Shown here: positions 39-52,861 of the stretch, in pieces
How positions within the stretch are numbered: the first letter of the stretch is position 1
Layout: each line of letters begins with the position of its first letter
Assembly (NCBI GenBank): GCA_964013565.1
Contig: CAXGWU010000001.1
Location: 93,601 to 157,600 of the forward strand
DNA length: 64,000 nucleotides
Direction: 5' to 3'
DNA from: an uncultured Oligoflexia bacterium
Lineage (GTDB): Bacteria > Bdellovibrionota > UBA1018 > UBA6935
Made by a program: the position numbers and the translations under genes
Notes under the pieces: generated by a model
Told to the model about the DNA's origin: nothing
Databases searched by the model: none
Seen by the model: only the letters and a program-made list of their open reading frames with translations

Positions 39-416
39 ATGAAGCTTTTGTCTGAGGAAGAAATCTCTTCTAGATCTCATCTACAGTTTTCGGAATATCT
101 TTCCCAGCTTGGTGTTGCTCATCAAAATGAAATTTTATTAGAAAAGATATTTTTAGTTGATATTGTTTTTGATTCTTTTAAAGCGATTATTGAAGTCAAT
201 GGGATTCATCATTACTGGGAGGACCGTGATGGGGCTTTTTATTTGAAAGGACCTGATTTAGCTAAGTATAGAATGCTAAAAAAACAGGGATGGGTCATCA
301 TTGAGTTGAATCAATTTGATTATATTGAAAGGTATGGTCAACTCGGAGTCCAAGGTGGCGTTGATGTTTTTCGGATGTGGTTTGAAAACCAGTTGCGCTC
401 GCTCCCATCTCGTTAA
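39..416 (+). CDS. RAP/DUF559-like PD-(D/E)XK endonuclease-fold protein
   Basis: 125-aa ORF. Core LVDIVF..AIIEVNGIHHY..GPDLAKYRMLKKQGWVIIEL fits the D / E-x-(D/N)-G-x-H / K-x-R-x-L-x-x-G-W pattern of RAP and DUF559 (Vsr-like) domains. The frame stays open back to base 3, so the true start may lie upstream of the window. Confidence 0.5.
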   Translation: MKLLSEEEISSRSHLQFSEYLSQLGVAHQNEILLEKIFLVDIVFDSFKAIIEVNGIHHYWEDRDGAFYLKGPDLAKYRMLKKQGWVIIELNQFDYIERYGQLGVQGGVDVFRMWFENQLRSLPSR

Positions 417-6119: not shown

Positions 6120-8230
6120 GAGAGTTTAGATTTCATTTGTTCTAAAAAAGAAGACACCTTCTGTTCGTGTGCTTCTCGAAGAACTTGGCTTGAAAGATCA
6201 GGTGTAGATGAGACATCTTCTGTGAAAATTAAGTTTCCGGGTATTTCTGATAGGAATCGAGAAGGGTACCGAGGTACTGGTTTCCCGTATCGAATTCTAT
6301 TTTTTGCACGAGTCAGATAGAGTTTTTCTTTTGCACGAGTGATTCCAACGTAGCAAAGACGACGTTCTTCACTATAGTCTGTTGCTTCATCCATGACTCT
6401 TTGATGAGGAAGGTAACCATCCTCCATTCCCACTAAAAAGACAGTGGGGAATTCTAAGCCTTTTGAGCCATGTAAAGTCATGAGTGTCACTTCGTCTTTT
6501 TCCTTACTTTCCTCTTCTTCGCTTTCTTCTTCGGCATCAAGAGTCAATCGAGTGATGTATTCTCTTAAAAACATAAAGCTGTTTTCAGCAGGTTCTTCAA
6601 GTTTCATCTGTCCAAGGCCATGTGCGAGCTCTTGAACCATTTCCCATCGCTGAGATGCTTGTAGGGCATCATCAACGTCGTTTTCTATTCCAGTTCTCAT
6701 TCCTATCCATTCAAAAGTTTGCCTTGCCCAGTCCGCCATAGCCGTTGGTTCAGGCTCAATCTTTTCTAATGCGTTTCTCATCTTTTGGATAAGAGAAGCG
6801 AAGGTCATGACCGCTTGTTTGGGTTTAGTCTTTAAGTCTGCATCAGGAATTGACTCAAAAAAAGAACATTGGTTTTCTACTGAATGGCTATGAATGGTGT
6901 CGATGGTTTTTTTCCCGATTCCTCTTGCAGGCCAATTAATGATTCTTCGAAGTGCAGTTTCTTCATCTGGATTTAAAATCGTTTTCCAGTAACTGAGGGT
7001 ATCTTTGATTTCTTTTCGGTCTAGAAAAGAAAAAGATCCAACTAAACGATAAGGAATCCCTTTCATTCGGAGTGCTTCTTCGAAATGTCTACTTTGTGGA
7101 TTGGATCGAAATAGAATTGCAAAATCACTCCAGTTCATGAGTGTTTTGACTTCCCCTCCCTCGTGTTTTTTTGCGAGATCAAAAATTCGCTCGGCTACGG
7201 TAGTTGCTTCGTCATGATCATCTTCAGTTAAGATGAGTGTTATCGGAGGTCCATCTTCTTTTTGAGACCAAAGCGACTTAGGGTGCCTAACCGAATTATT
7301 TTGAATAACTTGATTTGCGGCATCTAAAATAGTTTGTGTGCTTCGATAATTTTGATCAAGAGTTACTGTTTTTGCTCCTGGGTAGTGTTTTCCAAAATTT
7401 AAAATGTGGGAAGGATCAGCCCCCCTCCAAGCATAAATAGATTGGTCATCGTCTCCCACCACGCAAATATTTTGTTGCTTTAGGGTAAGGAGTCGAATGA
7501 GTTCAAATTGGGCTTGATTGGTGTCTTGGTACTCATCAACAAGAATGTATTTAAATCGATCATTATAGGCGTCACAGACTTCAGGGTGTTTTTTTAATAA
7601 ATCAACAGCGTTGAATAATAAATCGTCAAAGTCCATCGCATTCATGGCCCGAAGTTGATCTTGATACTCCGGATAGGTGGTTGCCATTTCTAAAGCAATT
7701 GGAGAGGATGCCTCATTTCTAGCTGAATTCATAAAAAAAGCTTCAGATTGATGAGGGGGAATAAATCTGTTTTTTGCTTGTCCAATTCCAAACAAGATAA
7801 AAGAAGGATCGAACTTTTTATCATCCACACTATTTTTTCTTAGAATTTTTCTGATGATCTCAATTTGATCATTTTGATCTAAAATAGAAAATTGTGAAGT
7901 GTATCCTAAGCGACTCGCTTCTTGTCTTAAGATTTTAACGCAAAGACTATGAAAAGTAGAAACAGTTAGTCCTTGTGTTCTTTTTTGTGTGATTTTTCTC
8001 ACTTCTGAATAAACGCGGTCTCTGAGTTCTCCAGCAGCCTTATTTGTAAAGCTAAGTCCTAATATTTGGCGCGGAGAGACCTTCTTTTGAGTAATCAAAT
8101 GAATCATTCGATAGGTCATTGTGCTGGTCTTTCCACTCCCTGCTCCTGCTAGGACAAGAAGGGGACCTTCTTCGTGGAGAACGGCTTGGCGTTGATTTGG
8201 ATTGAGTTTTTTTAAGTACTTCGTTTGCAT
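6116..8230 (-). CDS. uvrD: UvrD/PcrA/Rep-family ATP-dependent DNA helicase
   Basis: Helicase SF1 motifs AGAGSGKT, DEYQDTN, QNYRS, LHGSKGLEF and VGITRAK. Confidence 0.9.
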   Translation of the reverse strand: MQTKYLKKLNPNQRQAVLHEEGPLLVLAGAGSGKTSTMTYRMIHLITQKKVSPRQILGLSFTNKAAGELRDRVYSEVRKITQKRTQGLTVSTFHSLCVKILRQEASRLGYTSQFSILDQNDQIEIIRKILRKNSVDDKKFDPSFILFGIGQAKNRFIPPHQSEAFFMNSARNEASSPIALEMATTYPEYQDQLRAMNAMDFDDLLFNAVDLLKKHPEVCDAYNDRFKYILVDEYQDTNQAQFELIRLLTLKQQNICVVGDDDQSIYAWRGADPSHILNFGKHYPGAKTVTLDQNYRSTQTILDAANQVIQNNSVRHPKSLWSQKEDGPPITLILTEDDHDEATTVAERIFDLAKKHEGGEVKTLMNWSDFAILFRSNPQSRHFEEALRMKGIPYRLVGSFSFLDRKEIKDTLSYWKTILNPDEETALRRIINWPARGIGKKTIDTIHSHSVENQCSFFESIPDADLKTKPKQAVMTFASLIQKMRNALEKIEPEPTAMADWARQTFEWIGMRTGIENDVDDALQASQRWEMVQELAHGLGQMKLEEPAENSFMFLREYITRLTLDAEEESEEEESKEKDEVTLMTLHGSKGLEFPTVFLVGMEDGYLPHQRVMDEATDYSEERRLCYVGITRAKEKLYLTRAKNRIRYGKPVPRYPSRFLSEIPGNLIFTEDVSSTPDLSSQVLREAHEQKVSSFLEQMKSKLS

Positions 8231-8310: not shown

Positions 8311-9795
8311 TTATCGTTTACTGTTAAAAGACAAAAATACACGATTGCATTTTAAATTTTCCCAGCTTTTTTGGTGATCTTGATAAGATTTCACAAGGTT
8401 ATCCAGTATTCTGTTTTTGAAAGGAGCCTTTTCAGAGAAAATTCTTGTTACTTTTTTGCTTGTCATTGAAATTTTTTGAATCAATGTAAAAAGGGTTACC
8501 GAAGGCTGAACGTCTCTTAGAACAGTATTGAGAATGTTTTCAAATTCTTTAGAGGAGATTTTCTTGTTTTTTCGTGCTACGGCTGTTTGTTCAAGAACGA
8601 GAAGAGGGATCCAGCGGTTTTTATAGTTTTTTGAAATTCTATGATAGAATTCAAAAAATTTAGAAATATCTTGTTTTTTACTTTCTTTGTTGAATGGTTT
8701 GTAAAAATTAGCAATTTCAGAATTGATAGATTCAATGTTTATTTTTTCTTTTTCCATTTTTAAAAGTAAATCTTCTTCATAATTCTTTTTTGAGATTCTT
8801 TTTTTTGTCCTATTCTTGATTTTGAATTGGTAGCCTAGCGCTTGAGCTTTTTTTATGACTTCCGCTAAAAAAGAATCGCTTGTAACAAGTTCGTAAATCG
8901 CTTTTTGATATCTAAGGAGATTCATTCTTACATCCGAAGACTTGGGGCCGAGTGACTTGGCGTAGCTATGATTGTTTTTATCTGTTGTAATTTCTGCAAA
9001 GCTTTGATTCCACGCGCCTACATAATGTTCATATCCAACTTCAGCAAACTTTGTTGAGACTTGATCATAGTAGTGAAGAGGAACGATGTTTTTATGATAT
9101 TCTGTTTGATCTGCTTGTTCTAAATTTTTTAATGTAGTTTCTTGAATTTTTCTTTTTTCCTTTAGTTCATATATGGATTCTCGAAAGGTTGGGGCAACTA
9201 CGCCTATAAAATAAAGTCGAGAAATGATGTCTTTGAGGTTTCCCCCGGAGTTTTCGTAGAGTCGGTACATTGCAGCAAGACAAGCTCGTCCTTGTCGTCC
9301 ATTTCCTTTAGAAACGGTGTCTACGAGTATGAGAGGTCTACCATTCATTCCATTTTTTAAGTCAAACCCTTTGCTTTTAAAAAGGCTATAGATTTGTTCG
9401 TCTGTAGGGTTGAATTTTGGACTAAAATCAGGATCCATTCCAAAAGTTGCTTTACTCATCCCCACTCTAATTACTTTATTGGGTTCTCCGATGCTATTGA
9501 AAAACCCTTCAATAATATCTGAAAATATTAGACTATCTCGACCTAAGAAGCCAAAAACTGCGTCTGGATAGATAAAAGATAAATGAGCGATAAATCTTGG
9601 TGCCTCTTTTTCTATAAATTGAAACCAATCAGGAAAAGGATTGTTTCCAGGAATTTCTTTTAAAACAGATTCCACCTTCTTCATAGATGGTCTTACGTTT
9701 TGATTGATTAAATTATTAATATCTTGGTCTTTTTGAGTCCAAGATAACATAGGAGAAAATAAGATAAGTAAGGCAATATATATTTTTGTTTTCAT
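8311..9795 (-). CDS. exported hypothetical protein, GRD-family paralogue (PRTase-like motifs, tentative)
   Basis: Signal peptide MKTKIYIALLILFSPMLSW. FGFLGRDSLIFSDIIEGFF..GEPN..IRVG and GRPLILVDTVSKGNGRQG resemble the HGPRT-type VLKGGYKFFADLL and VLIVEDIIDTGKT loops. Full-length paralogue of 16931-18463. C-terminal KCNRVF motif. Confidence 0.45.
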   Translation of the reverse strand: MKTKIYIALLILFSPMLSWTQKDQDINNLINQNVRPSMKKVESVLKEIPGNNPFPDWFQFIEKEAPRFIAHLSFIYPDAVFGFLGRDSLIFSDIIEGFFNSIGEPNKVIRVGMSKATFGMDPDFSPKFNPTDEQIYSLFKSKGFDLKNGMNGRPLILVDTVSKGNGRQGRACLAAMYRLYENSGGNLKDIISRLYFIGVVAPTFRESIYELKEKRKIQETTLKNLEQADQTEYHKNIVPLHYYDQVSTKFAEVGYEHYVGAWNQSFAEITTDKNNHSYAKSLGPKSSDVRMNLLRYQKAIYELVTSDSFLAEVIKKAQALGYQFKIKNRTKKRISKKNYEEDLLLKMEKEKINIESINSEIANFYKPFNKESKKQDISKFFEFYHRISKNYKNRWIPLLVLEQTAVARKNKKISSKEFENILNTVLRDVQPSVTLFTLIQKISMTSKKVTRIFSEKAPFKNRILDNLVKSYQDHQKSWENLKCNRVFLSFNSKR

Positions 9796-9797
9796 TT

Positions 9798-11288
9798 CTA
9801 TTTTCCTCTCATGAGTGCAATTGCATCTTCTTCTGAATCAATAAGATGAATTCTTCTTTTTAACCATTCAGGGTAATGATCAGAGATTAAGTTTTTAAGT
9901 AACGGTTTATAGAATTCGCTATTTATAAAAGCTAATTGAGAGCGCTTATTTGGATTTCCAGAAAAATCAACAAAAGTTGTTGCTAGTTCTTTCATCGTTC
10001 CATTGCCTCCAGGTCCTACAAAAATAAGGTCTTTGTCGTGCAGTAAAAAAGGAATTCGTGTTTCATAATCCATTGATTCAATGACAAATCTTTTATTGCT
10101 AAAAGAATAAGATTTCCCAATGATAATATCGATGGCAGTTCCTCCATTATCAATGCTTGCATTTGCTGCGGCTTCCATGAGGCCACCCCCCCCACCGCTT
10201 GATAAGATATATTTATTTTTTGCAGAAACTTTAGCTACGAGTTGAACTAGTTGTCTCCAGCGATAGTCAAACGAACTAGACCCAAAAAAAACCGCTTTTT
10301 TATGATCTTTCAAACTTTCAGAAATATAATCTATATCTTCAATTCCAGCTAAGTAATTAGAGATGATTAATTTAAAACTATAATCAAATTGATGACTAAA
10401 CTTTTCTTCGTTGAAAGGAATAATGCTTTTATATCTATTGGGACCCGGAGTAATAAAACTTAAGTCATTTTTAATTTTTAAGTATGAAGACTTAAATTTT
10501 CCTAATGCTTTGAAATTTAAAAAGTCTGAATCCCATTCATTTTTATAGTTAATGAGGAAATCTAGTTTATCGATTAAATGAAGAGCTAAGGCTGTAACAG
10601 AACGAGTATCACCTACTGACTTTCCTATAGAAAAAGCTTTAAGTCTTAAGTAAGGATTTTCAATTGCAATGATGTTTTCATTTAAATTTTCTTTATTTGG
10701 GTCCGCAGTAATGCCTACTCCAAGTTTCCCTAATGTTTTTTGTATATCTTTCGCTGATATTGAATCTGCATCGTAGAAAAATATTTGAGAAAAATTAGAT
10801 AGTGTTTTTTTGAGTGAATTGAGATCGACTGTGGTTGGGTAATCGGTGGTTCCAAAAAGAAGAGTGTATGGATTCATATTGGAAAACGAATCTAACCACT
10901 TAAATCTCATAAGATCTGAAAGAAATGATTTTGATTGATCTTTTCTATCTAATTTAAAAATTTCCTCTATTGATAATTCTTGAGGTTTACTACTTTTTGA
11001 TGGAAGTTTTCTATTCTTGTTTTCGTAATGACTATTGGAATAACCTTTATAAGAATATGGGCTGTCTGTATCTAGACTTGTAACTGGAGATTGATAATCA
11101 AATTGGTATGTGTTGTTAACAGCAATCTCACTTATATCAGGAACTTCATCAATTTTAGGTGGTTTGATTCCGTGAATTCCAAAAACTAAAGCGCATTGAG
11201 AAGAAAATAAATGGTCCAAATTAGAAGTAGCGTTGGATGTTAATGTATAGATGATACCTACTATAGATATCAAAAAAAGATTTTTCAT
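9798..11288 (-). CDS. exported tandem LOG/TIGR00730-like protein (degenerate N-repeat plus intact C-repeat)
   Basis: Signal peptide MKNLFLISIVGIIYTLTS. The C-terminal domain carries both LOG signatures, SSGGGGGLMEAAANAS and VGPGGNGTMKELAT. Paralogue of 15189-16880 (YETRIPFLLHDK / YETRIPLLLHEK). The single Cys lies in an N-terminal CALVF. Confidence 0.65.
   Translation of the reverse strand: MKNLFLISIVGIIYTLTSNATSNLDHLFSSQCALVFGIHGIKPPKIDEVPDISEIAVNNTYQFDYQSPVTSLDTDSPYSYKGYSNSHYENKNRKLPSKSSKPQELSIEEIFKLDRKDQSKSFLSDLMRFKWLDSFSNMNPYTLLFGTTDYPTTVDLNSLKKTLSNFSQIFFYDADSISAKDIQKTLGKLGVGITADPNKENLNENIIAIENPYLRLKAFSIGKSVGDTRSVTALALHLIDKLDFLINYKNEWDSDFLNFKALGKFKSSYLKIKNDLSFITPGPNRYKSIIPFNEEKFSHQFDYSFKLIISNYLAGIEDIDYISESLKDHKKAVFFGSSSFDYRWRQLVQLVAKVSAKNKYILSSGGGGGLMEAAANASIDNGGTAIDIIIGKSYSFSNKRFVIESMDYETRIPFLLHDKDLIFVGPGGNGTMKELATTFVDFSGNPNKRSQLAFINSEFYKPLLKNLISDHYPEWLKRRIHLIDSEEDAIALMRGK
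10186..10193 (-). repeat. G8 homopolymer (C8 on the plus strand) inside the LOG GGGxG motif codons
   Basis: Direct read: ggccaccccccccaccgc. On the coding strand this is ggt ggg ggg ggt ggc, encoding GGGGG. Confidence 0.95.
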
Positions 11289-13237
11289 TTTATGTCCCCA
11301 ATAAAATTTTTCTCACATTTTTCCTCAATATCTCCATTAATTACTTCTTTTATAAATGTTTTTTTTATGTGAAGAGATTGAGCCCATTTATTTCCGAGTT
11401 CATCTAAATAGAGGAGTCTAGTTTCGGTATCTGTGGTTGTCGGAATGAGATGACCGTAGTACCAAAGGCTCCACGTTCCATTGTGAAAATATAAACTATC
11501 TGGAGTTAAACCGTGAATATATAGATTTAAATGAACTAGATGATCAAAAAAATCCGCAAGTGCTGTCCATGCAATTGTTTCATGAATTGGAACCGCTGCT
11601 TTATTTGAAAGCTCTCTTAAAGAAACTCCTTGTGGTTCATCTATCGCAACAAAATAAAGACTGTTTCTTATCTTAGAAACAATAATTCTATTCTCTTGTA
11701 GGTGCAATAGCTCATAGTATGAAGGTGTTCCTGGGTCAAACCTAAAGATCACTTGTTTTAAATTTTTTTCTTTTTGAATGATTTCATATTTTTTCAATTC
11801 TCCAATGTTCACTTTTTTTGGCGAAGAATTAATAAAAGGAGGCTCTTTTTTTATGTCATTATTTTCATAATTTAATTCATTACTTTTTTTTCGTCTTTTC
11901 TTTTTGGGACCTTTTGAATGATTTTGGAAGTTTTGTTTATCTAGTAATTCTTTCCAAAATAAATCAATTTCTTTTTTTTTGCTTTTAAGTTCTTCTCTTA
12001 ACCATTTTGTTTTTAGTTTGTTTGAGTATTCATTTAGAGTTCTATGTTTGCTGAAAAAAGTTCTAATTGGTCCGCTATCAACTATTTGCCATTCTTTTCC
12101 ATCAAAAATAAGATTGTCAGGGTTTAATCCGGAGACATAAATGTATTTTTCAGAAGCTTTAATGAAAAATTTTTCTAGTGCTAATTTTTTTGGGTTATTT
12201 TTTGTGTCTAAAATTTTTTCATCGAGAATCGCTTCTCTTAATCGAGTTCCTTCAATGAAATTCATAAGTAGAGACTTTTTATCTGTACTCCATTTCACAT
12301 TAACTGAAGACAGACCGTTTTTTCTCCATTCTTCTGATAGCTCTATCTGTTTTTTGAAACTTTTTTGAATATCCGCACTATCGTTTACTGGAACTTTCCA
12401 AGCCCATAGTTCTCCATTTGAGTCCTTTAACTGATGAACTCTACCTGTTTTTCCAACGCCTACGGCTTCTTTTTCTAATGAGTAACCTTCCGGAATATCG
12501 ACCTCTTTAACTGAGTTAATGAGAGCTAATAATTTTTCCCAGTTTTTTTCTTCAATCAAATCTTTGGCATTTTGTAAGAACTTTCTCCTTTGGCTAACTT
12601 CGGTAATGGTATTGGCTTTTTTTAGAACTTGAAAATGAATTGGTTCGAGATCAATTTTTGGGAAAACATACCGACTCAATCGCCTGAGAGTTTTTGTGTT
12701 TGCTCGGCTTGTGATAATCCAAATTAATTCAAAATCATCTCTATAAGAGGATAGAGGAAGGATATGTTTTGTAAAAGATTCTAATTCATCTAATGGTATG
12801 ATCGCTGCTGTATAACGAAGAGAAGGAAGTAAATTTTTTTCATTACTTTGAGTGAATAGTTTAAAGAGTGTAGAAAAGTTATAAATTTTTTTGTCGCTTA
12901 AAATGCCAATTAGAACATTGTTATTGTTTTTTCCTTTTTCTGAATGCAAATATTGATTAATAATGATGTCTCTTAGACAGAAACTTTCTGTCGCTAGTTT
13001 AATATAAAATTTATCAGGTGGGTTGTTTTGTGATTTAATGATTTCATCAATGATAGCTATATTCATCGCTTTATATTCATTGCTTTTCGCCAAAGATAGT
13101 TTTTTTATAACCTGAGAAATCGCCTCCCACTGTTGATTTTCGATTAGTTTTTTGAGTCGATGTGGAACCACGGTTTGAGCATGTGCTGGTATGATAAAAA
13201 ACAGACAAGCTAAATATAAGAAAATTTGTTTTTTCAT
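11285..13237 (-). CDS. exported protein with two atypical protein-kinase-like modules
   Basis: Signal peptide ending AHA-Q. Module 1: GVGKTGRV (G-loop), WAWKV, LLMNFIEG (hinge), GLNPDNLIF, IVDSG. Module 2: FVAIDEPQGVSL, IHGLTPDSLYF. Lys-rich linker KGPKKKRRKK. C-terminal KCEKNF. Confidence 0.45.
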   Translation of the reverse strand: MKKQIFLYLACLFFIIPAHAQTVVPHRLKKLIENQQWEAISQVIKKLSLAKSNEYKAMNIAIIDEIIKSQNNPPDKFYIKLATESFCLRDIIINQYLHSEKGKNNNNVLIGILSDKKIYNFSTLFKLFTQSNEKNLLPSLRYTAAIIPLDELESFTKHILPLSSYRDDFELIWIITSRANTKTLRRLSRYVFPKIDLEPIHFQVLKKANTITEVSQRRKFLQNAKDLIEEKNWEKLLALINSVKEVDIPEGYSLEKEAVGVGKTGRVHQLKDSNGELWAWKVPVNDSADIQKSFKKQIELSEEWRKNGLSSVNVKWSTDKKSLLMNFIEGTRLREAILDEKILDTKNNPKKLALEKFFIKASEKYIYVSGLNPDNLIFDGKEWQIVDSGPIRTFFSKHRTLNEYSNKLKTKWLREELKSKKKEIDLFWKELLDKQNFQNHSKGPKKKRRKKSNELNYENNDIKKEPPFINSSPKKVNIGELKKYEIIQKEKNLKQVIFRFDPGTPSYYELLHLQENRIIVSKIRNSLYFVAIDEPQGVSLRELSNKAAVPIHETIAWTALADFFDHLVHLNLYIHGLTPDSLYFHNGTWSLWYYGHLIPTTTDTETRLLYLDELGNKWAQSLHIKKTFIKEVINGDIEEKCEKNFIGDIK

Positions 13238-15192
13238 TTTTTAAGGTTTCCAGGTGTTCCAAATAGGATTTGACATGTCGAAGTACTGTTAGAACTAAAG
13301 CTCTTATTTTTACGACTGTCATGATAAAAGAACTCTTTTAAAAAATTCATATCTGAAAGCATTTCAGTTTGAGTTTTGTCTGTAAAAAAATAAGTATAAA
13401 ATCCTTTATTGAGACGTGGAGTGTAGTCTACATTAACAATTTGCTCAGCGTTATCGACCTGAAAATTTGCGGCTTTGAAGTCTAACCAAATGTTTTGTTC
13501 TGCTGCAATTTTTTTTGCGATAAGCCATTGTTCCAATACCTGGTTTTTTATTTTTTTCGGTATTTCTTCAATTGGATTTTGAGAATATTTTGCTTCTAAG
13601 TTTTTTCCGTCAAAGTAAGTTTGTTCTACAATTACCCCTGTTGGATGTGCATAAAGTATTTTTGCATGCCTAAAATTTGGATAATTTTTTAGAATTCTAT
13701 CTTGTGTCCATTTTTGCAAAAGAGATTTACGTGCATTTTTTGGGTTTTTTGTAATTTTAATAACTCTATTTTTATCACTTAAAAATACTTGTACATTTCT
13801 ACCTTCTCCTAGATATCCTTTTAACTTATAGAGGACTGCATTATTAGAGGTTAGAACCATTGGGTAATTTGGATCATCGCTTTTTTTGATTTCCAGAGAT
13901 GAAAAAAAGTCATTTGCTCCCTCTAATGGTTCCAGATATTGCCAATCTTTCATAGCACTGAAGCCTTTTTGATGGACTTCAGATATTTCCTGAAATAAGA
14001 GTTCGTTTTTGTTTAAGTCTTTTTTGTTTTTTCTTATTTTTTCTTGATTTTTAGTGGTCTTCTTTTTTACTGGAATAATTGTTTCAGCAAGTCGTAGATC
14101 AGATACTAGTCCAAGGAGTGATATAACTTTTTGAGATAGTTTTATAGGTTTGTCACTATAAATATGAAGTGACGGTTTTGTTTTAAATTTTAGTCCTGTT
14201 TGTATAAACTTATGACGATGCTCTAGTAGATTGTGAACATGATCAGCATCCCAGTGATTAATTGCTCCTGGAATAGCGATTTGAAATCGTTGAATAGAAA
14301 AAAAATAATCAGTTTCGGTGAGTTTTTTAATAGTCTCTGAAGAGAGTTCTTCGTTGTTCCTGGTGTAATTGTTGATAATATCTTTAAAAGAAGAGTTTCC
14401 ATCTACTCTTTTTGATCTCAAATATCTGAAATCTACAAGTTTCAGGAATTGAGTTGCTTCAGATTTATTTAGGTTTTCACAAATGGCTCTTAAAATTGCT
14501 CTGGGAATTTTTCCAGACATACTTGAATCCATAAATACTAAGCCATTTTTTAATAATCTCTCTTTTGTTAGTCCGATGGAATTTAATAAATGGTAAATTT
14601 CAGAAGTTTGATGGTTGAAGATTAAGTCTCTTATTTTCCTTGATACATTAAGGGTGTAAAGAAAATTTTTATCTATAGATTTTTTTAAAGAGATAAAAAG
14701 ATATGGAGCCGTAAAGTCTCTTCCTATAAAAAATAAATTTTTATTATTAAAATCTCTTTTGATTTCATTTTCTATTTGAGCGATTACAGGAATGATGACT
14801 TCTGTTTCGTATTCTTGAGTGTAACGAATAAGTTGATCTGTTATTTTTTTAGAATCAATTGAATCTAAAGAAACAACACCGATTTTTTTGTCTAATTCAA
14901 GAGCACTATTTTTAAGTTTTGAGCGTTTATTTGACCAATGAAAAAAGAGTTCATTGAAAAACTGAGTTTTTTCTTGAGTCGTTAGAGTTTTAACTTCTTC
15001 TAAAATTAAATAGATGTCATTACGAATTGACTCTAAAATATCGGTTTGAATCCATTTTTTAAGAAATTCATCGTAGCTATTAGAGTTTTGGGCTTGAAGA
15101 GCTGATTCATAGTGATTTTCTATTACATCGCTGGAAAATACATTAGTCTCAGTAAAGCAAAATAATAGAATAAATAAAATTAATTTATTCAT
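13234..15192 (-). CDS. exported fusion of a GRD-family (PRTase-like) N-domain and an ePK-like kinase C-domain
   Basis: Signal peptide MNKLILFILLFCF. N-half: LFFIGRDFTAPYLFISL and GLVFMDSSMSGKIPR. C-half: LGEGRNVQVF (GxGxxxxV), VIKITK (VAIK-like), VIVEQTYFDG (hinge), WLDFKAANFQV (DxKxxN), NVDY (DFG-like). C-terminal TCQILF. Confidence 0.55.
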   Translation of the reverse strand: MNKLILFILLFCFTETNVFSSDVIENHYESALQAQNSNSYDEFLKKWIQTDILESIRNDIYLILEEVKTLTTQEKTQFFNELFFHWSNKRSKLKNSALELDKKIGVVSLDSIDSKKITDQLIRYTQEYETEVIIPVIAQIENEIKRDFNNKNLFFIGRDFTAPYLFISLKKSIDKNFLYTLNVSRKIRDLIFNHQTSEIYHLLNSIGLTKERLLKNGLVFMDSSMSGKIPRAILRAICENLNKSEATQFLKLVDFRYLRSKRVDGNSSFKDIINNYTRNNEELSSETIKKLTETDYFFSIQRFQIAIPGAINHWDADHVHNLLEHRHKFIQTGLKFKTKPSLHIYSDKPIKLSQKVISLLGLVSDLRLAETIIPVKKKTTKNQEKIRKNKKDLNKNELLFQEISEVHQKGFSAMKDWQYLEPLEGANDFFSSLEIKKSDDPNYPMVLTSNNAVLYKLKGYLGEGRNVQVFLSDKNRVIKITKNPKNARKSLLQKWTQDRILKNYPNFRHAKILYAHPTGVIVEQTYFDGKNLEAKYSQNPIEEIPKKIKNQVLEQWLIAKKIAAEQNIWLDFKAANFQVDNAEQIVNVDYTPRLNKGFYTYFFTDKTQTEMLSDMNFLKEFFYHDSRKNKSFSSNSTSTCQILFGTPGNLKK

Positions 15193-16880
15193 CTTTTATT
15201 CCTCTTTTTATTAAAGAAATAAATTTCTTCATCTAAAAGGCCAAAGCTGAAGAGGGTCTCTATAGTGATTTTTAATTCAAAATCGTTTTTGACAAAATGA
15301 ATTCTATCTTTAATGAATTGCGGAATTGATGAGCTGTCGATTTGATTTTTTAAGCCACTGTAATAGTCATCACCCACAAAAATGATCTCTAATTTTTCTT
15401 TTGGGTTTTCTAGAAGTTTTAGAATCGTTATCCAAAATTCTTTCATGGTTCCAGAGCCTCCTGGAACAAAAACAACAAGTTGTTTTTCGTGAAGAAGGAG
15501 AGGGATTCGGGTTTCATATCCACTACTCGAAACGGTAAGAGAATGATGTTCTTTTTCTACTTTTTTTTCTGTTTTTAGAGTGTGTTTACCCGTGATAGGG
15601 ATCCCAACTGATGGAACATGAGATGATATTGCTGCAGTATTTGAAGTTTTCATGGCACCGCCAGCTCCGCCAGTCGTGATGCTAATATCAAGAGATCCTA
15701 AGGCGAGACCAGATTTGAAAATAAGGTTCTCAAAAGGATTCTCATCCCTTCCCGTTCCAAAAACTGCAGCTCCTCTTACTCCTGTTAAATCTTCTTGTCC
15801 GATTAGAAGTTCAGTAACTTCTTTGACGATATGATCAATTTGATAATCAGAAAGGTCTGAAAGAGTTATTTTTTTTGGTTTAAATTGTTTTGTAATTATT
15901 GGGAAAATTTCTGTCTCAACGTGAGGAGAGGTACGAATAGGCTCTCCTGCAAGGTCAAATTCTTGATTAAAGTAACTTTTACTGTAGATAGGAGATGAAG
16001 GGATTTTTTTAATCGCTGTAGTAACGGTTGTAGCTTGATCAAAAATAGGTATTTCTTTAGTTCGAACTCCCATGTTTATGTTCATAAGATCTAAGTCTTG
16101 TTTCCATTGATGAAGAGAAAAGTTCCATTCTTTTTTTGGATCAAAAATAATGTCTATTTCATTATTGAATAATCCCGCAAATCCAGTTGTGGAGTCAGGA
16201 GTTGTAATTATTTTTTCCGAGGTGTTAAATAAAGCCTGTGCTCTTAAGTAGGTGTTTTTAATGTAAACTTGGCCTCTTTGTTTTGTTGGTTGATTAGAGA
16301 TACCAAAAGATGATTTTTGAGCTAGAGATTGAATTAGTTTAGCGTAAGGACTATTTGATTCGTAGAGGATAAAATATCCACGAGAAATAAATTGAGAAAC
16401 TAATTCGGTCAATTCAGTTTGCATTTGAGGATCAGGCTGTGTTCCAGAAGTCCCTGCAAGAATCGTCACTGTTTGTTTTGAATTTAGTTTTTTTAATCTT
16501 TCTAGGTTGAGGTGATCTTGAATGTACTGACCTTCAGTAGTTAATAATACCAATTCAAGTGCTTTTAGGTTTTTTTCTCTGTTTGTTTTTTTTAGACGTT
16601 GAATCTCTGAAGTTATTTGAGCTATTTGCTTTTTTACCGATTGATTTTCTTTTTTTCCAGAATTACTAAAAATTTTTTTTAGTAATCCTCTTTGTTTTTT
16701 AGAAATTTTTTTAGTATTTAAAGACGTTAATTTTTTTTCTAATTCTTTAATCCGTTCTGACTCCTGATTTAGACTAGTTAGTCGTTCTAATGTGGATAGA
16801 CGACTTAAAAAATTTTCTTCACATCCGGCTAAAGAGAAGTGATGGGCAATTAAAGTTAAAATAATAATAAGTTTTTTCAC
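15189..16880 (-). CDS. exported (lipobox) coiled-coil plus tandem LOG/TIGR00730-like protein
   Basis: MKKLIIILTLIAHHFSLAGC (lipobox LAGC, then CEENF). Lys/Glu-rich coiled coil. Degenerate first repeat (TILAGTSG..ITTPDSTTGFAG). Intact second repeat with TTGGAGGAMK and VPGGSGTMKEF. Confidence 0.65.
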   Translation of the reverse strand: MKKLIIILTLIAHHFSLAGCEENFLSRLSTLERLTSLNQESERIKELEKKLTSLNTKKISKKQRGLLKKIFSNSGKKENQSVKKQIAQITSEIQRLKKTNREKNLKALELVLLTTEGQYIQDHLNLERLKKLNSKQTVTILAGTSGTQPDPQMQTELTELVSQFISRGYFILYESNSPYAKLIQSLAQKSSFGISNQPTKQRGQVYIKNTYLRAQALFNTSEKIITTPDSTTGFAGLFNNEIDIIFDPKKEWNFSLHQWKQDLDLMNINMGVRTKEIPIFDQATTVTTAIKKIPSSPIYSKSYFNQEFDLAGEPIRTSPHVETEIFPIITKQFKPKKITLSDLSDYQIDHIVKEVTELLIGQEDLTGVRGAAVFGTGRDENPFENLIFKSGLALGSLDISITTGGAGGAMKTSNTAAISSHVPSVGIPITGKHTLKTEKKVEKEHHSLTVSSSGYETRIPLLLHEKQLVVFVPGGSGTMKEFWITILKLLENPKEKLEIIFVGDDYYSGLKNQIDSSSIPQFIKDRIHFVKNDFELKITIETLFSFGLLDEEIYFFNKKRNKR

Positions 16881-16930
16881 CGTTTATTTAGTCCTTTTTT
16901 AAAAGTAAGATTTGCTTTTTTTAAAATGAT

Positions 16931-18463
16931 TTATTTTTTATCTATTTGTGTAAAAATTCGATTACATCCAGTTTTTGTAAGATAATCTGAGATGGTTTTA
17001 GTGTGTTCCGAAATTTTCCCTCCAAATTTGTCGGAGTTTTTAAATTCATCTTCTCTTTTTTCAAACATAGATCTGAATTTTTCATCGTTTTCATAAAGCT
17101 CCCGAATAGCTTTTAGTTGATCGTCAGAAAGAGAAGGAGTGTTGCCTAGGACATAACGATAAAGTCGTTTATAATCTCTTCCTTTAATTTTCTGAGAAGC
17201 TCTTGCTCTAGTGATAGCCTGCATAAATGGGACAATGATTTTGTCTTTAAAATCTGTATTTTGAAATTGCTTTAACCATTGAAGGTAGTGATTTCCGTTG
17301 TTTGAGAGTTTGTTTGTGATTTCTCCGGGTTCATTTAAAGATTGTTCTATTTCAAAAAGGTTTTTTAGATGTTCTTTAAGTTGTTCTTGTTTTTTCTCTT
17401 CTTGAAGAGCTAATTCTTTTTTTCTTTGTTTTTTTCTTTCATTGATTTGTTGTGACGTTAGTGATTGATAAAGTTTTGAATTTCCATCTAAATCAATTTT
17501 ATAGAGTTTTAGATATTCATCTAATTTGTCTTTAAATTCATTAGATTTAATGAGTTCGATAATTATATAAATTTCTTGTAAAACAGTTTTTTTTGAAATA
17601 TTCGAAAATTGCACGCCAGAAATTGGAATAAGTTTTTCGTTTATTTCTTTAAAACCTAGCCATGAATCATGCCACTCTGAAGTCCTATGATTTATCCTAA
17701 AAAAAGTTCCATAACTTGTGCTTAATCGTGGAACCGGTACGCCGTCTATATGAGATAGTGATGATACGTTTTCGAAAAAGTTTTCCTGATCAAAGTCTTC
17801 GTTGATAGTATGTTTTAGGTTGTTGTCGCTAATATTAACAAACGCAATTTTTCCAAGAAGATCTTTTGGGTCTTTTCCTAGATTTTTGTAGGTTTCATAG
17901 AGATATCTCATCGTTAGCCTGGATTGGCTTGCTTCTCCTCCTCCTCCTCCACTGGTATAAGTTGGGCTATAGCTACTAAAATCATAGAGAACCCAAGGGG
18001 CACTTTCTGTAATGGTATCGAAGTTAATGCCTAGAGACTGAGCATATCGAACAATGGTTTCTGAGGAAGAGTTTTTAAAACTTGGAGTACTTGCGTTGAA
18101 TCTTCCTGCGCGATTAGGCTCACCTCTCAGATAGTAAAACGCTTCCAGGGCTAGACTATTTTGGATGACATCTCTTCCAAGAGAAAAATATCTTCCTCCA
18201 GGAAAGGCTTTTTCAAAACTTACAATCATTCTGGCGATATTGTTTATAGCATTAGGGTAAGCATTAGCGATAAACTCTTGATTAAGCATTTTTTCATGAC
18301 TCGGCCATGGGTTGAGTACAGTGAGCATTTCTTCGATTGTGGGAACTGTTTTTTTTTGTACTAACTCATCAATTTGATTTTCTAATTGTGTTTGATCAGA
18401 AAAAGCAAAAGAAATGAAAAGAAAGTGGAGGCTAAAAAAAATAGATTTATTTATGAGTTTCAT
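16931..18463 (-). CDS. exported hypothetical protein, GRD-family paralogue (PRTase-like motifs, tentative)
   Basis: Start taken at internal Met MKLINKSIFFSLHFLFISFAF (signal peptide). This removes the overlap with the upstream gene. YFSLGRDVIQNSLALEAFYYLRGEPN and WVLYDFSSYSPTYTSGGGGGE. Single Cys in the C-terminal GCNRIF. Confidence 0.45.
   Translation of the reverse strand: MKLINKSIFFSLHFLFISFAFSDQTQLENQIDELVQKKTVPTIEEMLTVLNPWPSHEKMLNQEFIANAYPNAINNIARMIVSFEKAFPGGRYFSLGRDVIQNSLALEAFYYLRGEPNRAGRFNASTPSFKNSSSETIVRYAQSLGINFDTITESAPWVLYDFSSYSPTYTSGGGGGEASQSRLTMRYLYETYKNLGKDPKDLLGKIAFVNISDNNLKHTINEDFDQENFFENVSSLSHIDGVPVPRLSTSYGTFFRINHRTSEWHDSWLGFKEINEKLIPISGVQFSNISKKTVLQEIYIIIELIKSNEFKDKLDEYLKLYKIDLDGNSKLYQSLTSQQINERKKQRKKELALQEEKKQEQLKEHLKNLFEIEQSLNEPGEITNKLSNNGNHYLQWLKQFQNTDFKDKIIVPFMQAITRARASQKIKGRDYKRLYRYVLGNTPSLSDDQLKAIRELYENDEKFRSMFEKREDEFKNSDKFGGKISEHTKTISDYLTKTGCNRIFTQIDKK
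17936..17950 (-). repeat. (TCC)5 trinucleotide repeat, i.e. (GGA)5 on the coding strand, encoding GGGGG
   Basis: Direct read: tcctcctcctcctcc within gcttctcctcctcctcctccactgg. Confidence 0.95.
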
Positions 18464-18464
18464 T

Positions 18465-19850
18465 TTATTTAATCTTTCTGCGTATAAATAACGTTTTACA
18501 AAGTGGAGTCTTTTTTTCTCCTGAAAATACAGACTGTAAAGTTTCCGAAATTTCAAAACCTAAATTTAAAACTGATATATCTGGCTGAGTAATGTTAAAT
18601 GAATTCGTCACAACCATGAGATCAATGTCTGGCGAGTCAATTGCTTTTTGAGCGTTTCCTGCAAGATGGCTAACAACACCAAATATCTTATTTGCACCAT
18701 GCTTTTTAAGAAACTCTGCTGACTCGGCAAGTGTTCCTCCAGAGGCAGTTTCGTCATCAACAATCGCTACAGTATGCCCTTTTACAGAGTCTCCACTAAT
18801 CCCGAGAATACGAGTCTCTCCAGTGAGAGGATTTCTTTTCTTATTGATAATTGCGAGGGGTAGGTGAAGTTCTTCTGCATATAAAGTAGCATCTTTTTGA
18901 AAACCAGCGTCAGGAGAAACGATAATAGAAACTCCCAGTTTCTTGAGTTCTTTATTGATTGTTTCTCTTCCGTTGATTTCAAAAACAGGGATAGAAAAAA
19001 AACCTACACTCTGAGGTGCATGCGGTCTTACAATTGTTATTGTTTTTACTCCTAGTCCCTCAATGAGGTCAGCAGTGAGTCTTCCTGTTACAGTAATTCC
19101 AAATTGATCTATCTTATCTGATCGAGCATAAGGAAGGTAGGGAGAGATCAGGTGAACTTGTTGCCACTTTGATTGAGTGCTATATATTTTATGTAAAGTA
19201 TCAAAAAATGATTTGTTTATTGGAGACTCAAGAGAAGATACATAAAATATATTGTATCCAGAGAGCTTTTTATTGTTGGGGTTCCATTCAGATTCTTGAA
19301 TGACTGGGATATTGAGTTGTTTTGATAAGGTGTCTCTCAATGAAGGGTTTGTGTCTCCTACAATTGCAAACTTTTTTTTAAAATTTTTTGTTTTTGTTTG
19401 ATATTCTGGAAAGTCATAATCTTGGTTTGCAATACGGTAAGATTCCGCCCCCGAAATTTTGAAAAGTTTTAATACAAAAGTTGAAGGTAAGGATTCAGAT
19501 TCAAAATGAACGGATATTGATAAGGCACCCATTGTTTTAGCGGTGCGAACTTTAATGAGAGCTTCCATAAGAAGGTCATCATGATCTTCAATGTTGTTTG
19601 GAATATACAGAGTTAGTTTCTGATTGATAGGATTTTTTAAAAATCGAACAAAAGTATTTCCGTTGCTAAACTCCGTTGTTTTTGTCGGAAGAATTTTACT
19701 TTCAATAGTTTCAGAATACGATTGAGTCTTTGCCTCATATCCACGAATTCCAACAAGCCATGGCTTTTTAGAAGCGATACAAACATTTGAAAAGCTAAAG
19801 CTTAAAAGAAATAAAAGTCCAAATTGTATTTTTTTTTGTGCCCCACCCAT
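18465..19850 (-). CDS. ribose-phosphate pyrophosphokinase (PRPP synthetase) homologue with signal peptide and an extra degenerate N-half
   Basis: Prs motifs LISPYLPYARSDK, SPDAGF, the flexible loop KKRNPLTGETRILGISGDSVKGH, the PRPP loop VAIVDDETASGGTL, and VVTNS. The N-terminus MGGAQKKIQFGLLFLLSFSFSNVCIA looks like a signal peptide. Residues ~50-150 repeat the Prs N-half (FSNGNTFVRF..DDLLMEALIKV). C-terminal LCKTLF. Confidence 0.7.
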   Translation of the reverse strand: MGGAQKKIQFGLLFLLSFSFSNVCIASKKPWLVGIRGYEAKTQSYSETIESKILPTKTTEFSNGNTFVRFLKNPINQKLTLYIPNNIEDHDDLLMEALIKVRTAKTMGALSISVHFESESLPSTFVLKLFKISGAESYRIANQDYDFPEYQTKTKNFKKKFAIVGDTNPSLRDTLSKQLNIPVIQESEWNPNNKKLSGYNIFYVSSLESPINKSFFDTLHKIYSTQSKWQQVHLISPYLPYARSDKIDQFGITVTGRLTADLIEGLGVKTITIVRPHAPQSVGFFSIPVFEINGRETINKELKKLGVSIIVSPDAGFQKDATLYAEELHLPLAIINKKRNPLTGETRILGISGDSVKGHTVAIVDDETASGGTLAESAEFLKKHGANKIFGVVSHLAGNAQKAIDSPDIDLMVVTNSFNITQPDISVLNLGFEISETLQSVFSGEKKTPLCKTLFIRRKIK

Positions 19851-20214
19851 TAATACTTTTGATCCTTTCTTATGTGTTTCTAGGAGTCCTTAGAATTCGA
19901 ATTGCAATGTGTCAATCTGTATGGTTAAAAAAATTATAAGAAGAATTTGCTTTTTATAATTAAAACCAACTTAGATTGTTGTTTATGAATAGATTGATTT
20001 AATGAGATTTCTTTATAGATAACCGGTTATTTGATTTTAAAATCGGTTTGTTAATGCCTATTTTGTTGTTTAGAAGAATCCAATGATAAATTAATGCATA
20101 TTGCTAATCTAAATGGATGGAAGTTCTACAGTTTAATGAATAAAGACGAAGGATCTAAAGTTTATGAATGTGTCTGCCTTGTTCTAAATGAGGATCATGC
20201 TAGAGTACCATGCG

Positions 20215-21009
20215 ATGAAAAATTATCTCGAATTGATGGAAAAGGTTTTGGTAGAGGGGACTCATAAAGAAGATCGGACAGGAACTGGAACAATAAGCTT
20301 ATTTGGCCATCAGATGCGATTTGACCTCGAAGAAGGTTTTCCTTTGGTGACGACAAAAAAAGCTCATCTTAAGTCGATCATTTATGAACTTCTTTGGTTT
20401 TTAAGAGGTGAAGGGAATATTCAATATTTAAAAGATCACAAAGTCACCATCTGGGATGAGTGGGCGGATCAAAAAGGTGATTTAGGGCCAGTCTACGGTG
20501 TTCAGTGGCGTTCCTGGCCAAAGCCGGATGGTCAGGTTGTTGATCAAATTTCTACAGTGGTTAATCAAATAAAAACAAACCCGGATTCTCGGAGATTAAT
20601 TGTCAGTGCGTGGAATGTAGGAATGCTTGATAAAATGGCTCTTCCTCCATGTCATGCTTTTTTTCAATTTTATGTCGCAGAAGGAAAGCTTTCTTGCCAG
20701 CTTTATCAAAGAAGTGCGGACTTGTTTTTGGGGGTTCCTTTTAATATTGCCAGTTACAGCTTACTCGTGTTGATGATGGCTCAGGTTTGTGGATTAAAGC
20801 CAGGGAGTTTTGTACATACTTTTGGAGATGTACATCTTTATACGAATCATTTAGAGCAAGCAAAAACTCAGCTCTCTCGAATTCCAAGAAAAAAACCTCT
20901 GATGAAACTAAATCCTGAAGTCAAAAATATTTTTGACTTTAAGTATGAGGATTTTGAATTGGTTGATTATGATCCGTATCCTGCAATCAAAGCACCGGTA
21001 GCAGTATGA
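20215..21009 (+). CDS. thyA: thymidylate synthase ThyA
   Basis: From [26 protein letters not shown] the protein is collinear with E. coli ThyA (264 aa). Active-site PPCH. Confidence 0.95.
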
Positions 21010-21482
21010 TTTCATTAATTGCTGCAATGGCGGAAAACCGGGTGATCGGCAAAGATGGAACGCTTCCTTGGAATATCCCTAGTGAAATGAAGTATTTTAG
21101 GGAAACAACTTCTGGATGTCCGATCATCATGGGAAGAAAAACGTTGGAAGAGTTAGGTGGAAAGCCCCTACCTAAAAGACGTAATATTGTAATCACTAGA
21201 AATAGAGATCTAGTTGTAGACTCTCGGATTGAGGTTTTTCATTCTCTTAAGGAAGCGATTGAAAATATTTCCTCTCAGATAGAAGTTTTTGTCATTGGTG
21301 GTGCTCAAATGTATAAGGAAGCTCTTCCATACTGTGATCGAATTTATTTAACTTCTATTCATGAGACTTACGAGGGAGATACTTATTTTCCTGAATTTAA
21401 CGAAGAGAGTTATGAGATTATTCGTGAAACATTTGTTGAAGAAGATCCTTCTTATACGATTCGAGTCTACCAAAAAAAATAG
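21006..21482 (+). CDS. folA: dihydrofolate reductase
   Basis: [39 protein letters not shown] overlap with thyA. Confidence 0.92.
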
Positions 21483-34735: not shown

Positions 34736-34768
34736 AGCGAAGAAGATTTTCATCTCTTCGCTTTTTTT
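34736..34768. terminator. bidirectional rho-independent terminator between actF and the convergent gene
   Basis: A-run, then stem gcgaaga(a)ga / tctcttcgc (9 bp, one bulge) with loop ttttca, then a T7 run at 34762-34768. Reads as a hairpin plus U-tract on both strands. Confidence 0.8.
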
Positions 34769-44756: not shown

Positions 44757-44870
44757 AAAGAGGAGATTGATTACTTTTCATCTTCGGGTGAACAGTGTTC
44801 TTCAAAGCTTTTCATCATGATTTGTTCGGATGGGGATGAAGAGTAATCAATCTCCTCTTCTTTTTTCTTT
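44757..44870. terminator. long inverted repeat (about 25-bp arms, 52-nt loop) with flanking T/A runs; probable bidirectional terminator
   Basis: Arm 44758-44782 (aagaggagattgattacttttcatc) pairs with 44835-44859 (gatgaagagtaatcaatctcctctt), with a single T-G wobble position. T-run at 44861-44866. Lies between convergent genes. Confidence 0.6.
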
Positions 44871-52649: not shown

Positions 52650-52861
52650 GGAGTTTTTATAACGCAATAAGTCATTGTTTTCAATGAAGAAGGTTCGTAG
52701 GGCCTTTGATTCAAATTTCAGGTTCGACCCATGCATTTATTTGAAATTACTATTAAAATTGTAACGATTTAGTCTGGAACTTCGAATAAGTTCTATTACA
52801 GGCGAAAAATAGTACTTCTAAAAAGGAAAGTTTGTTTCGATTGACTCGATTATCAATCTTT

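Follow-up and report, generated by a model that had tools for sequence, protein, structure and literature searches.

We analysed a 64,000-nucleotide window from the metagenome-assembled genome (MAG) of an uncultured Oligoflexia bacterium (contig CAXGWU010000001.1) and focused on positions 8311–19850, a low-GC block that is filled exactly by seven co-directional minus-strand open reading frames (ORFs), g1 to g7 (Table 1). On balance, we read the block as a native, long-resident and fast-evolving operon that encodes an exported enzyme module centred on phosphoribosyl pyrophosphate (PRPP), and not as a recent import. According to this reading, the richness in A/T and in Lys, Asn, Ile, Phe and Tyr would arise mainly from weak constraint on seven lineage-specific exported proteins, which would drift with the AT mutational bias of the genome and would also favour codons ending in A/T somewhat more than the housekeeping flanks do. 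The junctions from g1 to g7 measure +2, −4, −4, −4, +50 and +1 nt. The start of g6 is most likely the ATG at 18463 and not the TTG at 18556, giving a product of 510 amino acids that begins with a signal peptide and agrees with the public gene call.

The initial annotation of this DNA had judged the block by eye to be AT-rich, with proteins rich in the five residues above, and had named GC, GC3 and codon usage as the quantities to compute. We computed them with the 64-kb window as the background, and the block differed in all three. The GC content is 0.321 in the block and 0.384 in the remainder of the window, and a 1-kb sliding profile drops from ~0.37–0.42 to 0.29–0.34 at 8–20 kb. The seven block genes have GC contents of 0.296–0.354 (mean 0.324), and the other 48 ORFs average 0.387 (P = 4e-7, Mann–Whitney test). 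When the 55 window genes are ranked by GC, all seven block genes fall within the lowest 11 and thus in the lowest fifth, and six of the seven lowest-ranking genes belong to the block. The difference is far beyond chance and the deficit is present at all three codon positions, the block and the other ORFs having values of 0.417 and 0.494 at the first (GC1; P = 1e-4), 0.318 and 0.364 at the second (GC2; P = 0.013) and 0.219 and 0.275 at the synonymous third position (GC3s; P = 2e-5). The combined fraction of Phe, Tyr, Asn, Lys and Ile (FYNKI) is 0.32–0.38 in the block proteins and mostly 0.22–0.30 in the products of the other ORFs, as had been suspected.

To separate the contributions of amino acids and codons, we re-coded the block proteins with synonymous codons as preferred in the remaining genes. 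A GC of 0.341 was predicted in this way, assigning ~73% of the deficit to amino acid composition and ~27% to codon choice. A similar skew had been claimed for positions 47660–52736. It is strong for one of the three genes there, 50016–52736 (GC 0.322, FYNKI 0.362), and weak for the other two, 47660–48571 (GC 0.355) and 48550–50067 (GC 0.362). None of the three matched Pfam or NCBIfam or showed similarity to the block proteins in blastp searches, and of ten genes outside the block that were scanned against Pfam, all among the lowest in GC, six had no family. Within the window, low GC goes with lineage-specific genes. The same trend in composition is seen in further low-GC genes without a family that are unrelated to the module (496–1368, 34767–36532 and 58484–59092), and several of the family-less low-GC genes, including these and the minus-strand genes of 47660–52736, have signal-peptide-like N-termini.

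An improbable alternative is that the block is a genomic island acquired recently from a donor richer in AT, whose composition, still unameliorated, would account for the low GC and GC3. The observations in its favour weigh against our reading: the differences in GC, GC3s and codon usage from the flanks are significant; the synonymous-codon heterogeneity of the block against the rest is the highest among contiguous seven-gene blocks of the window (chi2 292 over 3,819 codons), one control block reaching 260; and the tetranucleotide correlation with the rest is 0.88, slightly lower than the 0.91–0.94 of the controls. Some signal not due to amino acids therefore remains, as measured against a background of one 64-kb window, and the module is also patchy and rare, with different flanks in every genome. 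On the other hand, the larger part of the deficit is explained by amino acid composition, and the GC-normalised dinucleotide distance of the block (δ∗ × 1000 = 30.7) lies inside the range of 17 same-sized control windows (19.9–44.4). No tRNA or tmRNA genes were found in the 64-kb window, no repeats bracket the block apart from short, low-identity A/T-rich chance matches, and scans of viral contigs found no module genes; housekeeping genes adjoin the block on both sides and the same skew is seen in unrelated family-less genes of the window. The lack of flanking tRNA genes and direct repeats that had been noted from the letters therefore largely stands, and for integrases the scan covered a part of the window ORFs.

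Comparison with homologous clusters in other metagenomic loci, denoted here L003, L006 and so on, points in the same direction. The GC content of the clusters follows that of the host: it is 0.494 in L003 (0.49 for the locus overall), 0.416 in L007 (flanks 0.465), 0.395 in L006 (flanks 0.445) and 0.337 in L010 (flanks 0.342), and thus ranges from 0.34 to 0.49, with the clusters of L006 and L007 lying ~5 GC points under their housekeeping flanks. The FYNKI fraction of the homologous clusters similarly varies from 0.245 to 0.33 and the same protein families thus adjust their amino acid make-up to genomic GC. The orthologs are only 31–41% identical, so any transfer would be ancient. Horizontal acquisition, which the initial annotation had suggested, is thus not supported as a recent event, because the deficit is driven by amino acids, the dinucleotides are native-like, the clusters take the GC of their hosts, and neither tRNA genes, repeats nor a viral copy were found; a transfer among Bdellovibrionota in the distant past is conceivable. 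The accompanying suggestions of accessory and fast-evolving content are supported. The families are very rare and the genomic neighbourhood is different at every locus, and between L006 and L007 the module proteins are 49–77% identical in comparison with 82–86% for two flanking enzymes, one paralog being present in one of the loci only.

Chance, or faulty assembly or binning, is a hardly credible source of the low GC even for a MAG, given that seven consecutive genes fall in the lowest GC fifth (P = 4e-7), the signature is native-like and two public assemblies made independently (186 and 271 kb) show the same contig structure. The block shares with classical genomic islands a contiguous multi-gene extent, lower GC and GC3 than the flanks, accessory content and a patchy distribution. 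Unlike them, it has no tRNA genes or direct repeats, sits among housekeeping neighbours, has native-like dinucleotides, deviates mostly through its amino acids and has orthologous clusters ameliorated to each host. A dip of six GC points can be produced mostly by amino acid drift in weakly constrained secreted proteins, and such a dip alone is therefore no evidence of gene transfer. As a compositional island, the block is ordinary.

Table 1. Features of the operon and its surroundings in the 64,000-nucleotide window; functions and export are predicted (gPRT, glycan phosphoribosyltransferase)
Feature	Position	Strand	Description	Basis
Operon	8311–19850	−	Seven-gene operon g1–g7, the low-GC block	ORFs, GC 0.321
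g1	8311–9795	−	Predicted exported gPRT-like protein; helical C-terminal region; C483 (CNRVF)	Family motifs
g2	9798–11288	−	Predicted exported LOG/SLOG-domain protein; only Cys C32 (CALVF)	Pfam, blastp
g3	11285–13237	−	Predicted exported kinase-like protein, core ~235–445; no domain assigned to the last ~190 aa; C641	PADLOC, homology chain
g4	13234–15192	−	Predicted exported fusion of gPRT-like (~110–300) and protein-kinase-like (~430–625) domains; C640	
g4 N-domain	~110–300 of g4		gPRT-like; IGRDF, NVSR, FMDSSMSGKIP	
g5	15189–16880	−	Predicted exported protein with C-terminal LOG/SLOG domain; lipobox-like LAGC; only Cys C20	Pfam, PDB
g6	16931–18463	−	Predicted exported gPRT-like protein, paralog of g1; GRD, S and hhhhD motifs; C500 (CNRIF)	blastp, alignments
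g7	18465–19850	−	Predicted exported Prs (ribose-phosphate diphosphokinase) homolog	TIGR01251, Pfam and PDB matches
Intergenic region	19851–20187	.	Divergent region between g7 and thyA, GC 0.27	Presumed operon promoter and leader
UvrD	6116–8230		UvrD-family helicase	Pfam domains
ThyA and DHFR	20188–21482		ThyA and DHFR	Recognised from translations
Second low-GC stretch	47660–52736	−	Three genes outside the module	Without family match

Of the enzymes predicted for the operon, g7 is at the family level a homolog of PRPP synthetase (Prs) with intact catalytic motifs. It scored 180.4 bits against TIGR01251 (cutoff 113), matched three Pfam Prs domains and had 7pn0 as its best Prs match in PDB (E 6.5e-29). 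A hidden Markov model of canonical Prs matched g7 twice, residues ~37–116 corresponding to Prs ~15–94 and residues ~165–445 to the whole enzyme. In the protein, a signal peptide and a partial duplicate of the Prs N-domain with an EFSNGN flag motif precede a complete Prs body and a C-terminal cysteine, C451 (CKTLF); the segment of the main body that corresponds to the duplicate is shortened, and the duplication is common to five orthologs. When aligned to canonical Prs, the catalytic motifs YAR-x-DK, HAPQ..GFF, SPD-G, the NK-x-R flexible loop and DDE-x-x-SGGT, whose roles are known from Prs structures, are invariant in the five orthologs. Prs enzymes convert ribose-5-phosphate and ATP to PRPP and AMP. 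Like g7, the class I enzymes of TIGR01251 match the family over the full length and above its cutoff and keep the catalytic and substrate motifs. They are, however, cytoplasmic housekeeping enzymes with a single N-domain, and g7 departs on both counts through its signal peptide and extra partial N-domain, as well as in having a conserved C-terminal Cys tail and an accessory-operon setting.

The paralogs g2 and g5 (blastp E 1e-27) carry, again at the family level, LOG-type phosphoribohydrolase domains with intact catalytic motifs. Both passed Pfam thresholds, g5 with scores of 33.1 for PF03641 (cutoff 27) and 29.4 for PF18306 (cutoff 26.3) and g2 with 32.5 for PF18306 (cutoff 26.3), and their SLOG domains align to solved cytokinin-riboside 5'-monophosphate phosphoribohydrolases in PDB with E values down to 2.4e-8. 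The elements GGxGxM, Arg and PGGxGTxxE are invariant in nine SLOG proteins of the module. LOG and PpnN enzymes split nucleoside 5'-monophosphates to base and ribose-5-phosphate and share these elements with g2 and g5, which are unlike them in being exported, in placing the domain behind a ~330-residue N-terminal and middle region that is conserved within the family, and in having a single conserved Cys at the mature N-terminus. Against the NCBIfam LOG and PpnN models, g2 and g5 scored far under the cutoffs. A second, tandem SLOG domain in the middle region was considered and was unsupported (hhalign E 0.21).

The third component is a family typified by g1, which includes its paralog g6 (blastp E 2e-15) and reaches the N-terminal domain of g4 through an 88-sequence family profile (hhalign E 1.7e-5). 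An exhaustive HMMER search of 1.84 billion proteins found 343 representative clusters at 50% identity, 205 of them under E 1e-30, and so defines a sizeable uncharacterised protein family. The sampled clusters are all metagenomic and carry no functional names; the family had no match in Pfam, NCBIfam or PADLOC, and no Pfam family or informative partner domain recurred among the 88 members. Eight long family members that are fusions showed no recognisable partner domain in Pfam either, a word-indexed homolog search with the family alignment brought no additions, the 88-sequence profile did not connect the family to the SLOG proteins, g3 or Prs, and shallow profile–profile comparisons among the operon families found nothing. 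Across the 88 members, G85-R86-D87, S114, D159, Q168 and W262 (g1 numbering) are invariant or nearly so.

The assignment of this family as gPRT-like comes from predicted structures. The closest structural matches of the AF2 models of g1 and the g4 N-domain were the glycan phosphoribosyltransferases 7shg, the ribofuranosyltransferase of Thermobacillus composti, and 8a0c, CriT of Haemophilus influenzae Bcs3, and HGPRT ranked 52nd among the matches of the g1-family model. The models appear to share with these enzymes a PRTase-like alpha/beta core flanked by helical bundles (PRTase, phosphoribosyltransferase). CriT binds PRPP by its diphosphate and ribose through S678-R679-D680, S707-R708 and E818 (PMC10299916). 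The g1 family has a G-R-D after the first strand, an S-[K/R] located 28 (g1) or 26 (g4) residues further on and an acidic residue ending the next-but-one strand, a layout with CriT-like spacing, the equivalence being judged by eye and without structural superposition. As in the setting of the known gPRTs, a PRPP source is at hand in the form of the Prs homolog g7. The known gPRTs, however, are cytoplasmic, fused or adjacent to an HAD phosphatase (PRP) and located in polysaccharide loci, whereas the proteins here are predicted to be exported, expanded into paralogs, fused to kinase-like domains and accompanied by Prs and LOG proteins, with no phosphatase partner. A short similarity between positions 307–331 of the g1 profile (g1 ~305–330, 'F..V...A..LGY.FP') and Legionella lpg1496 (PDB 5bq9/5btw) spanned 25 residues and was not significant (E 0.16).

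Kinase-like domains form the fourth component. The C-terminal domain of g4 holds the full set of kinase residues, a Gly-rich loop (LGEGRNV), the ATP-anchoring Lys (K479), the catalytic D571-x-K-x-x-N576 and the metal-binding Asp (D589), all invariant in its family. For g3, the evidence is a match to the kinase-type PADLOC model PD-T4-6 (E 9e-6) and a chain of homology, in which its homolog L003_1002 (E 2e-40) in turn matches the part of L010_4576 annotated as Pkinase on a weak match. The G-loop, the Lys and a VDSG motif are present in g3 and, given its altered catalytic loop, the protein may be a pseudokinase or make use of a shifted catalytic residue. Two 'GL-x-PD-[NS]-L' loops of g3 (~380–400 and ~590–610) stand at the place of the kinase H/Y-R-D motif. 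No relatives were found when PDB sequences were searched with g3, with g4 and with the profiles of the g4 and g1 families.

The seven proteins share features that suggest export and possibly a physical coupling. Signal-peptide-like N-termini, called with a crude home-made heuristic, were found in 7 of 7 block genes and in 15 of the 48 other ORFs (P = 8e-4, Fisher test). They consist of basic residue(s), a hydrophobic stretch and a cleavage-type site of small residues, and N-termini of the same kind are seen in the orthologs of every other locus. The module proteins are poor in cysteine (0.2–0.3%), and we observed a strict rule for its location in the window and in loci L003, L006, L007, L010–L012, L015, L033 and L034. 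All 41 non-SLOG module proteins have a Cys 5–13 residues from the C-terminus, usually in the form C-x-x-aliphatic-L/F/Y, although a Cys at such a place is expected by chance in 4.8% of proteins (uncorrected binomial P ~6e-55); these proteins belong to four families whose tails cannot be aligned with each other. All 13 SLOG proteins, in turn, have exactly one Cys, located at residue 16–60 just past the signal peptide, and none near the C-terminus. The SLOG rule of an N-terminal Cys also holds for a RelA/SpoT-family protein encoded in L003, and the C-terminal Cys is missing from the Prs-like variant of L031, which has no such partners. One hypothesis is that the terminal cysteines couple the proteins one to one by disulfides after export; they could also serve as a shared processing tag. 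Taken as a lipoprotein signal, the N-terminal Cys would make sense in g5 only (LAGC), and for the C-terminal Cys a CaaX box or a sortase-type sorting signal is a misfit, the Cys not being at the extreme end, the tail being too short and a hydrophobic segment missing. The rule is directly testable.

The co-occurrence of the four components extends beyond the window. Homologs of g4 are extremely few, three among 5.8 billion sequences at 31–32% identity, with one true relative among ~185,000 species-representative genomes, in a MAG of an 'uncultured Bdellovibrio sp.' Further metagenomic loci were sought by a pattern scan from the Prs-like alignment; alignments A2 and A3 were too divergent. The module recurs in at least ten metagenomic loci with flanks unrelated between loci, and Prs-like, SLOG, gPRT-like and kinase genes occur together in the window and in L003, L006, L007, L010/L011, L012, L015, L033 and L034. 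The gPRT-like genes (2–5 per locus) always sit with SLOG proteins (1–3 per locus), and long enough contigs usually show a g4-type fusion and a single Prs-like gene as well. An independent fusion found in L010 runs the other way, with a g3-type kinase in front of a gPRT-like domain, which by the Rosetta-stone argument suggests that kinase and transferase act together. In L003, from an uncultured Bdellovibrio MAG, the module includes a gene for a 335-aa RelA/SpoT-family protein (alarmone-synthetase-type pyrophosphokinase) with a signal peptide (12006–13013, minus strand); it adjoins a gene for an exported protein of 1,298 aa. In L031 (8686–9816 and 9824–11269; also in L029), a Prs-like gene lies 8 nt downstream of an exported fusion of an NTPase_I-T domain (ITPase/XTPase-like) and a canonical adenine-PRTase-type domain (PF00156, E 1e-20), and no SLOG or gPRT-like genes are found within 10 kb of it. 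The exported Prs subfamily is thus linked in two ways, through the module and through the adenine-PRTase-type context of L031, to PRPP-using enzymes. In the literature searched, we found exported PRPP synthetase or PRTase systems described neither for Bdellovibrio nor for any other organism, and met with no earlier account of a predicted exported set of Prs, LOG, PRTase-fold and kinase proteins encoded together.

As far as can be judged from sequence, the operon most likely serves to transfer phosphoribosyl groups from PRPP or to process nucleotides, in either case after export of its products. The LOG domains of g2 and g5 would split nucleoside monophosphates to base and ribose-5-phosphate, from which the Prs-like g7 would make PRPP. 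The proteins g1 and g6 and the N-terminal half of g4 would use PRPP to move 5-phosphoribose onto a putative acceptor, and the kinase-like domains (the C-terminal half of g4 and g3) would phosphorylate the acceptor or the product, the transferase and kinase roles being suggested by predicted fold, active-site-like motifs and gene neighbourhood. As the synthetase releases AMP, on which LOG enzymes act, a cycle is possible in which ATP and the acceptor give adenine, pyrophosphate and the phosphoribosyl-acceptor. All the proteins are predicted to be exported, yet three of the activities need ATP or nucleotides, and the likely site of action is therefore outside the cytoplasm of the producer. The place would be an attacked prey cell or its envelope, which is the least supported step of the proposal. 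A possible, if doubtful, extension is that the operon encodes a secreted self-sufficient phosphoribosylation machine of predators, in which disulfide-paired enzymes turn the adenylates of the prey to PRPP and then phosphoribosylate and phosphorylate macromolecules or the envelope of the prey, ATP being the effective donor; the machine would be a new weapon or marking system.

Several points weigh against this proposal. A periplasm is not known to offer ATP. The calls of signal peptides come from a simple heuristic, and the catalytic loop of g3 (SGLNPDN) is without the usual Asp, so the protein may be inactive. The gPRT assignment does not go beyond the level of fold: the AF2 models, built from shallow alignments of 4–5 sequences, have a moderate mean pLDDT of 62–64, a Foldseek search of the g1 model against PDB returned nothing significant, the 88-sequence profile had no match to 7shg or 8a0c among PDB sequences at E ≤ 10, the 88 members showed no link to Pfam PRTases and no recurrent Pfam family, and the comparison of motifs with CriT was visual. 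As no link was found by Foldseek or sequence, we call the domains gPRT-like by fold and motif, and not members of the family. The predatory habit of the MAG, finally, is suggested by its phylum membership only (PMC8067016).

Another, rather unlikely, reading of the same enzymes is that they scavenge or destroy nucleotide pools outside the cytoplasm and have no macromolecular acceptor, either feeding the producer or poisoning the prey. The LOG domains would then strip the bases from the nucleoside monophosphates of the prey, the Prs-like protein would burn ATP to PRPP, and the PRTase-like proteins would act on free bases or nucleotides. Such a role is consistent with the intact catalytic motifs of the LOG and Prs proteins, with the partner of the Prs-like gene of L031, an exported fusion of an NTPase and a canonical enzyme of the adenine-PRTase type, and with the exported RelA/SpoT-family pyrophosphokinase of L003. 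An analogy exists in the PRTase toxin ShosT, which acts inside cells (PMC11961720), and PADLOC reported weak matches of g7 to ShosT/PsyrT and of g2 to PsyrA. These matches, however, are marginal (E 1e-4 to 7e-3 over 40–60 residues) and far under the family level, covering the generic PRPP loop only. The closest structural matches of the paralog family are O-linking glycan phosphoribosyltransferases and not base-salvage PRTases, multiple diverged paralogs and fusions to kinases suggest several or larger acceptors, and the LOG and APRT reactions run in opposite directions, making the logic of salvage unclear. In the ShosTA and PsyrTA systems, a PRTase toxin and an SLOG/DprA-like partner act on nucleotide metabolism (PMC11961720). 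The operon resembles them in pairing PRTase-type with SLOG-superfamily proteins and in the weak PADLOC matches, whereas the two systems have two genes, are cytoplasmic and contain canonical PRTase domains, in comparison with seven genes, all for predicted exported proteins, with Prs and kinases in the operon.

It is quite improbable that the operon serves to build a capsule or O-antigen of the producer, a surface polysaccharide with ribofuranose in it, in the manner of the gPRT–PRP ribofuranosyltransferases. The likeness of the predicted folds to gPRTs would fit such a role, but the known enzymes use cellular PRPP in the cytoplasm, have an HAD-type phosphatase as partner and are encoded in glycan-assembly and ABC-transporter loci. 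Here, every operon protein has a signal peptide, and no HAD phosphatase, glycosyltransferase, polysaccharide-assembly or polysaccharide-export domains or genes are annotated in the clusters with gene tables (the window operon, L003, L006, L007, L010, L033 and L034); in their place are kinases, LOG domains and a Prs of the operon's own.

Under the preferred reading of exported PRPP-centred enzymes, each catalytic domain belongs to a known superfamily or resembles one, and the interest of the content lies in the combination, as indicated by gene neighbourhood, sequence and models of moderate quality. All four kinds of enzyme (PRPP synthetase, LOG nucleosidases, PRTase-fold and kinase-like enzymes) are normally cytoplasmic, and here they are found together with export signals in at least ten loci of uncultured Bdellovibrionota-type genomes. 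If active outside the cell, the proteins would mean that predators export ATP- and PRPP-dependent chemistry, which bears on the killing, marking and digestion of prey, and PRPP-dependent phosphoribosyl transfer, recently found for the ribofuranose of capsules and O-antigens, would extend to a new setting.

The immediate neighbours of the block are UvrD, CcsA/ResB, ThyA and DHFR, and the uvrD-like and thyA/folA housekeeping flanks recognised in the initial annotation are thus as described (Table 1). Neither the block nor its leader matched a riboswitch or any other RNA family of Rfam, and a scan for promoters and terminators showed no enrichment over shuffled sequences. UvrD with the same neighbours and the same gene calls is found on a 186-kb contig of the MAG GCA_002722705.1 and on a 271-kb Tara Oceans scaffold, and the arrangement is therefore no accident of assembly; an exact look-up of UvrD returned this MAG or contig only. 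GCA_002722705.1 is labelled 'Bdellovibrionaceae bacterium' at NCBI, and a comparative study places it in the marine 'Bdello-group1' of the phylum Bdellovibrionota (PMC8067016). Two further genes of the window were noted. Next to those for cytochrome oxidase is a gene for a DUF2608-family protein (44869–45750, minus strand; E 1e-44), whose N-terminus is hydrophobic. The first ORF of the window (39–416, plus strand), which continues upstream of it, encodes the C-terminal end of an 856-aa protein (17815–20385 of locus L001) with matches to RAP, FAST_1 and RESC6-type domains, which are typical of eukaryotic organellar RNA-binding (FASTK-like) proteins and unusual in bacteria.

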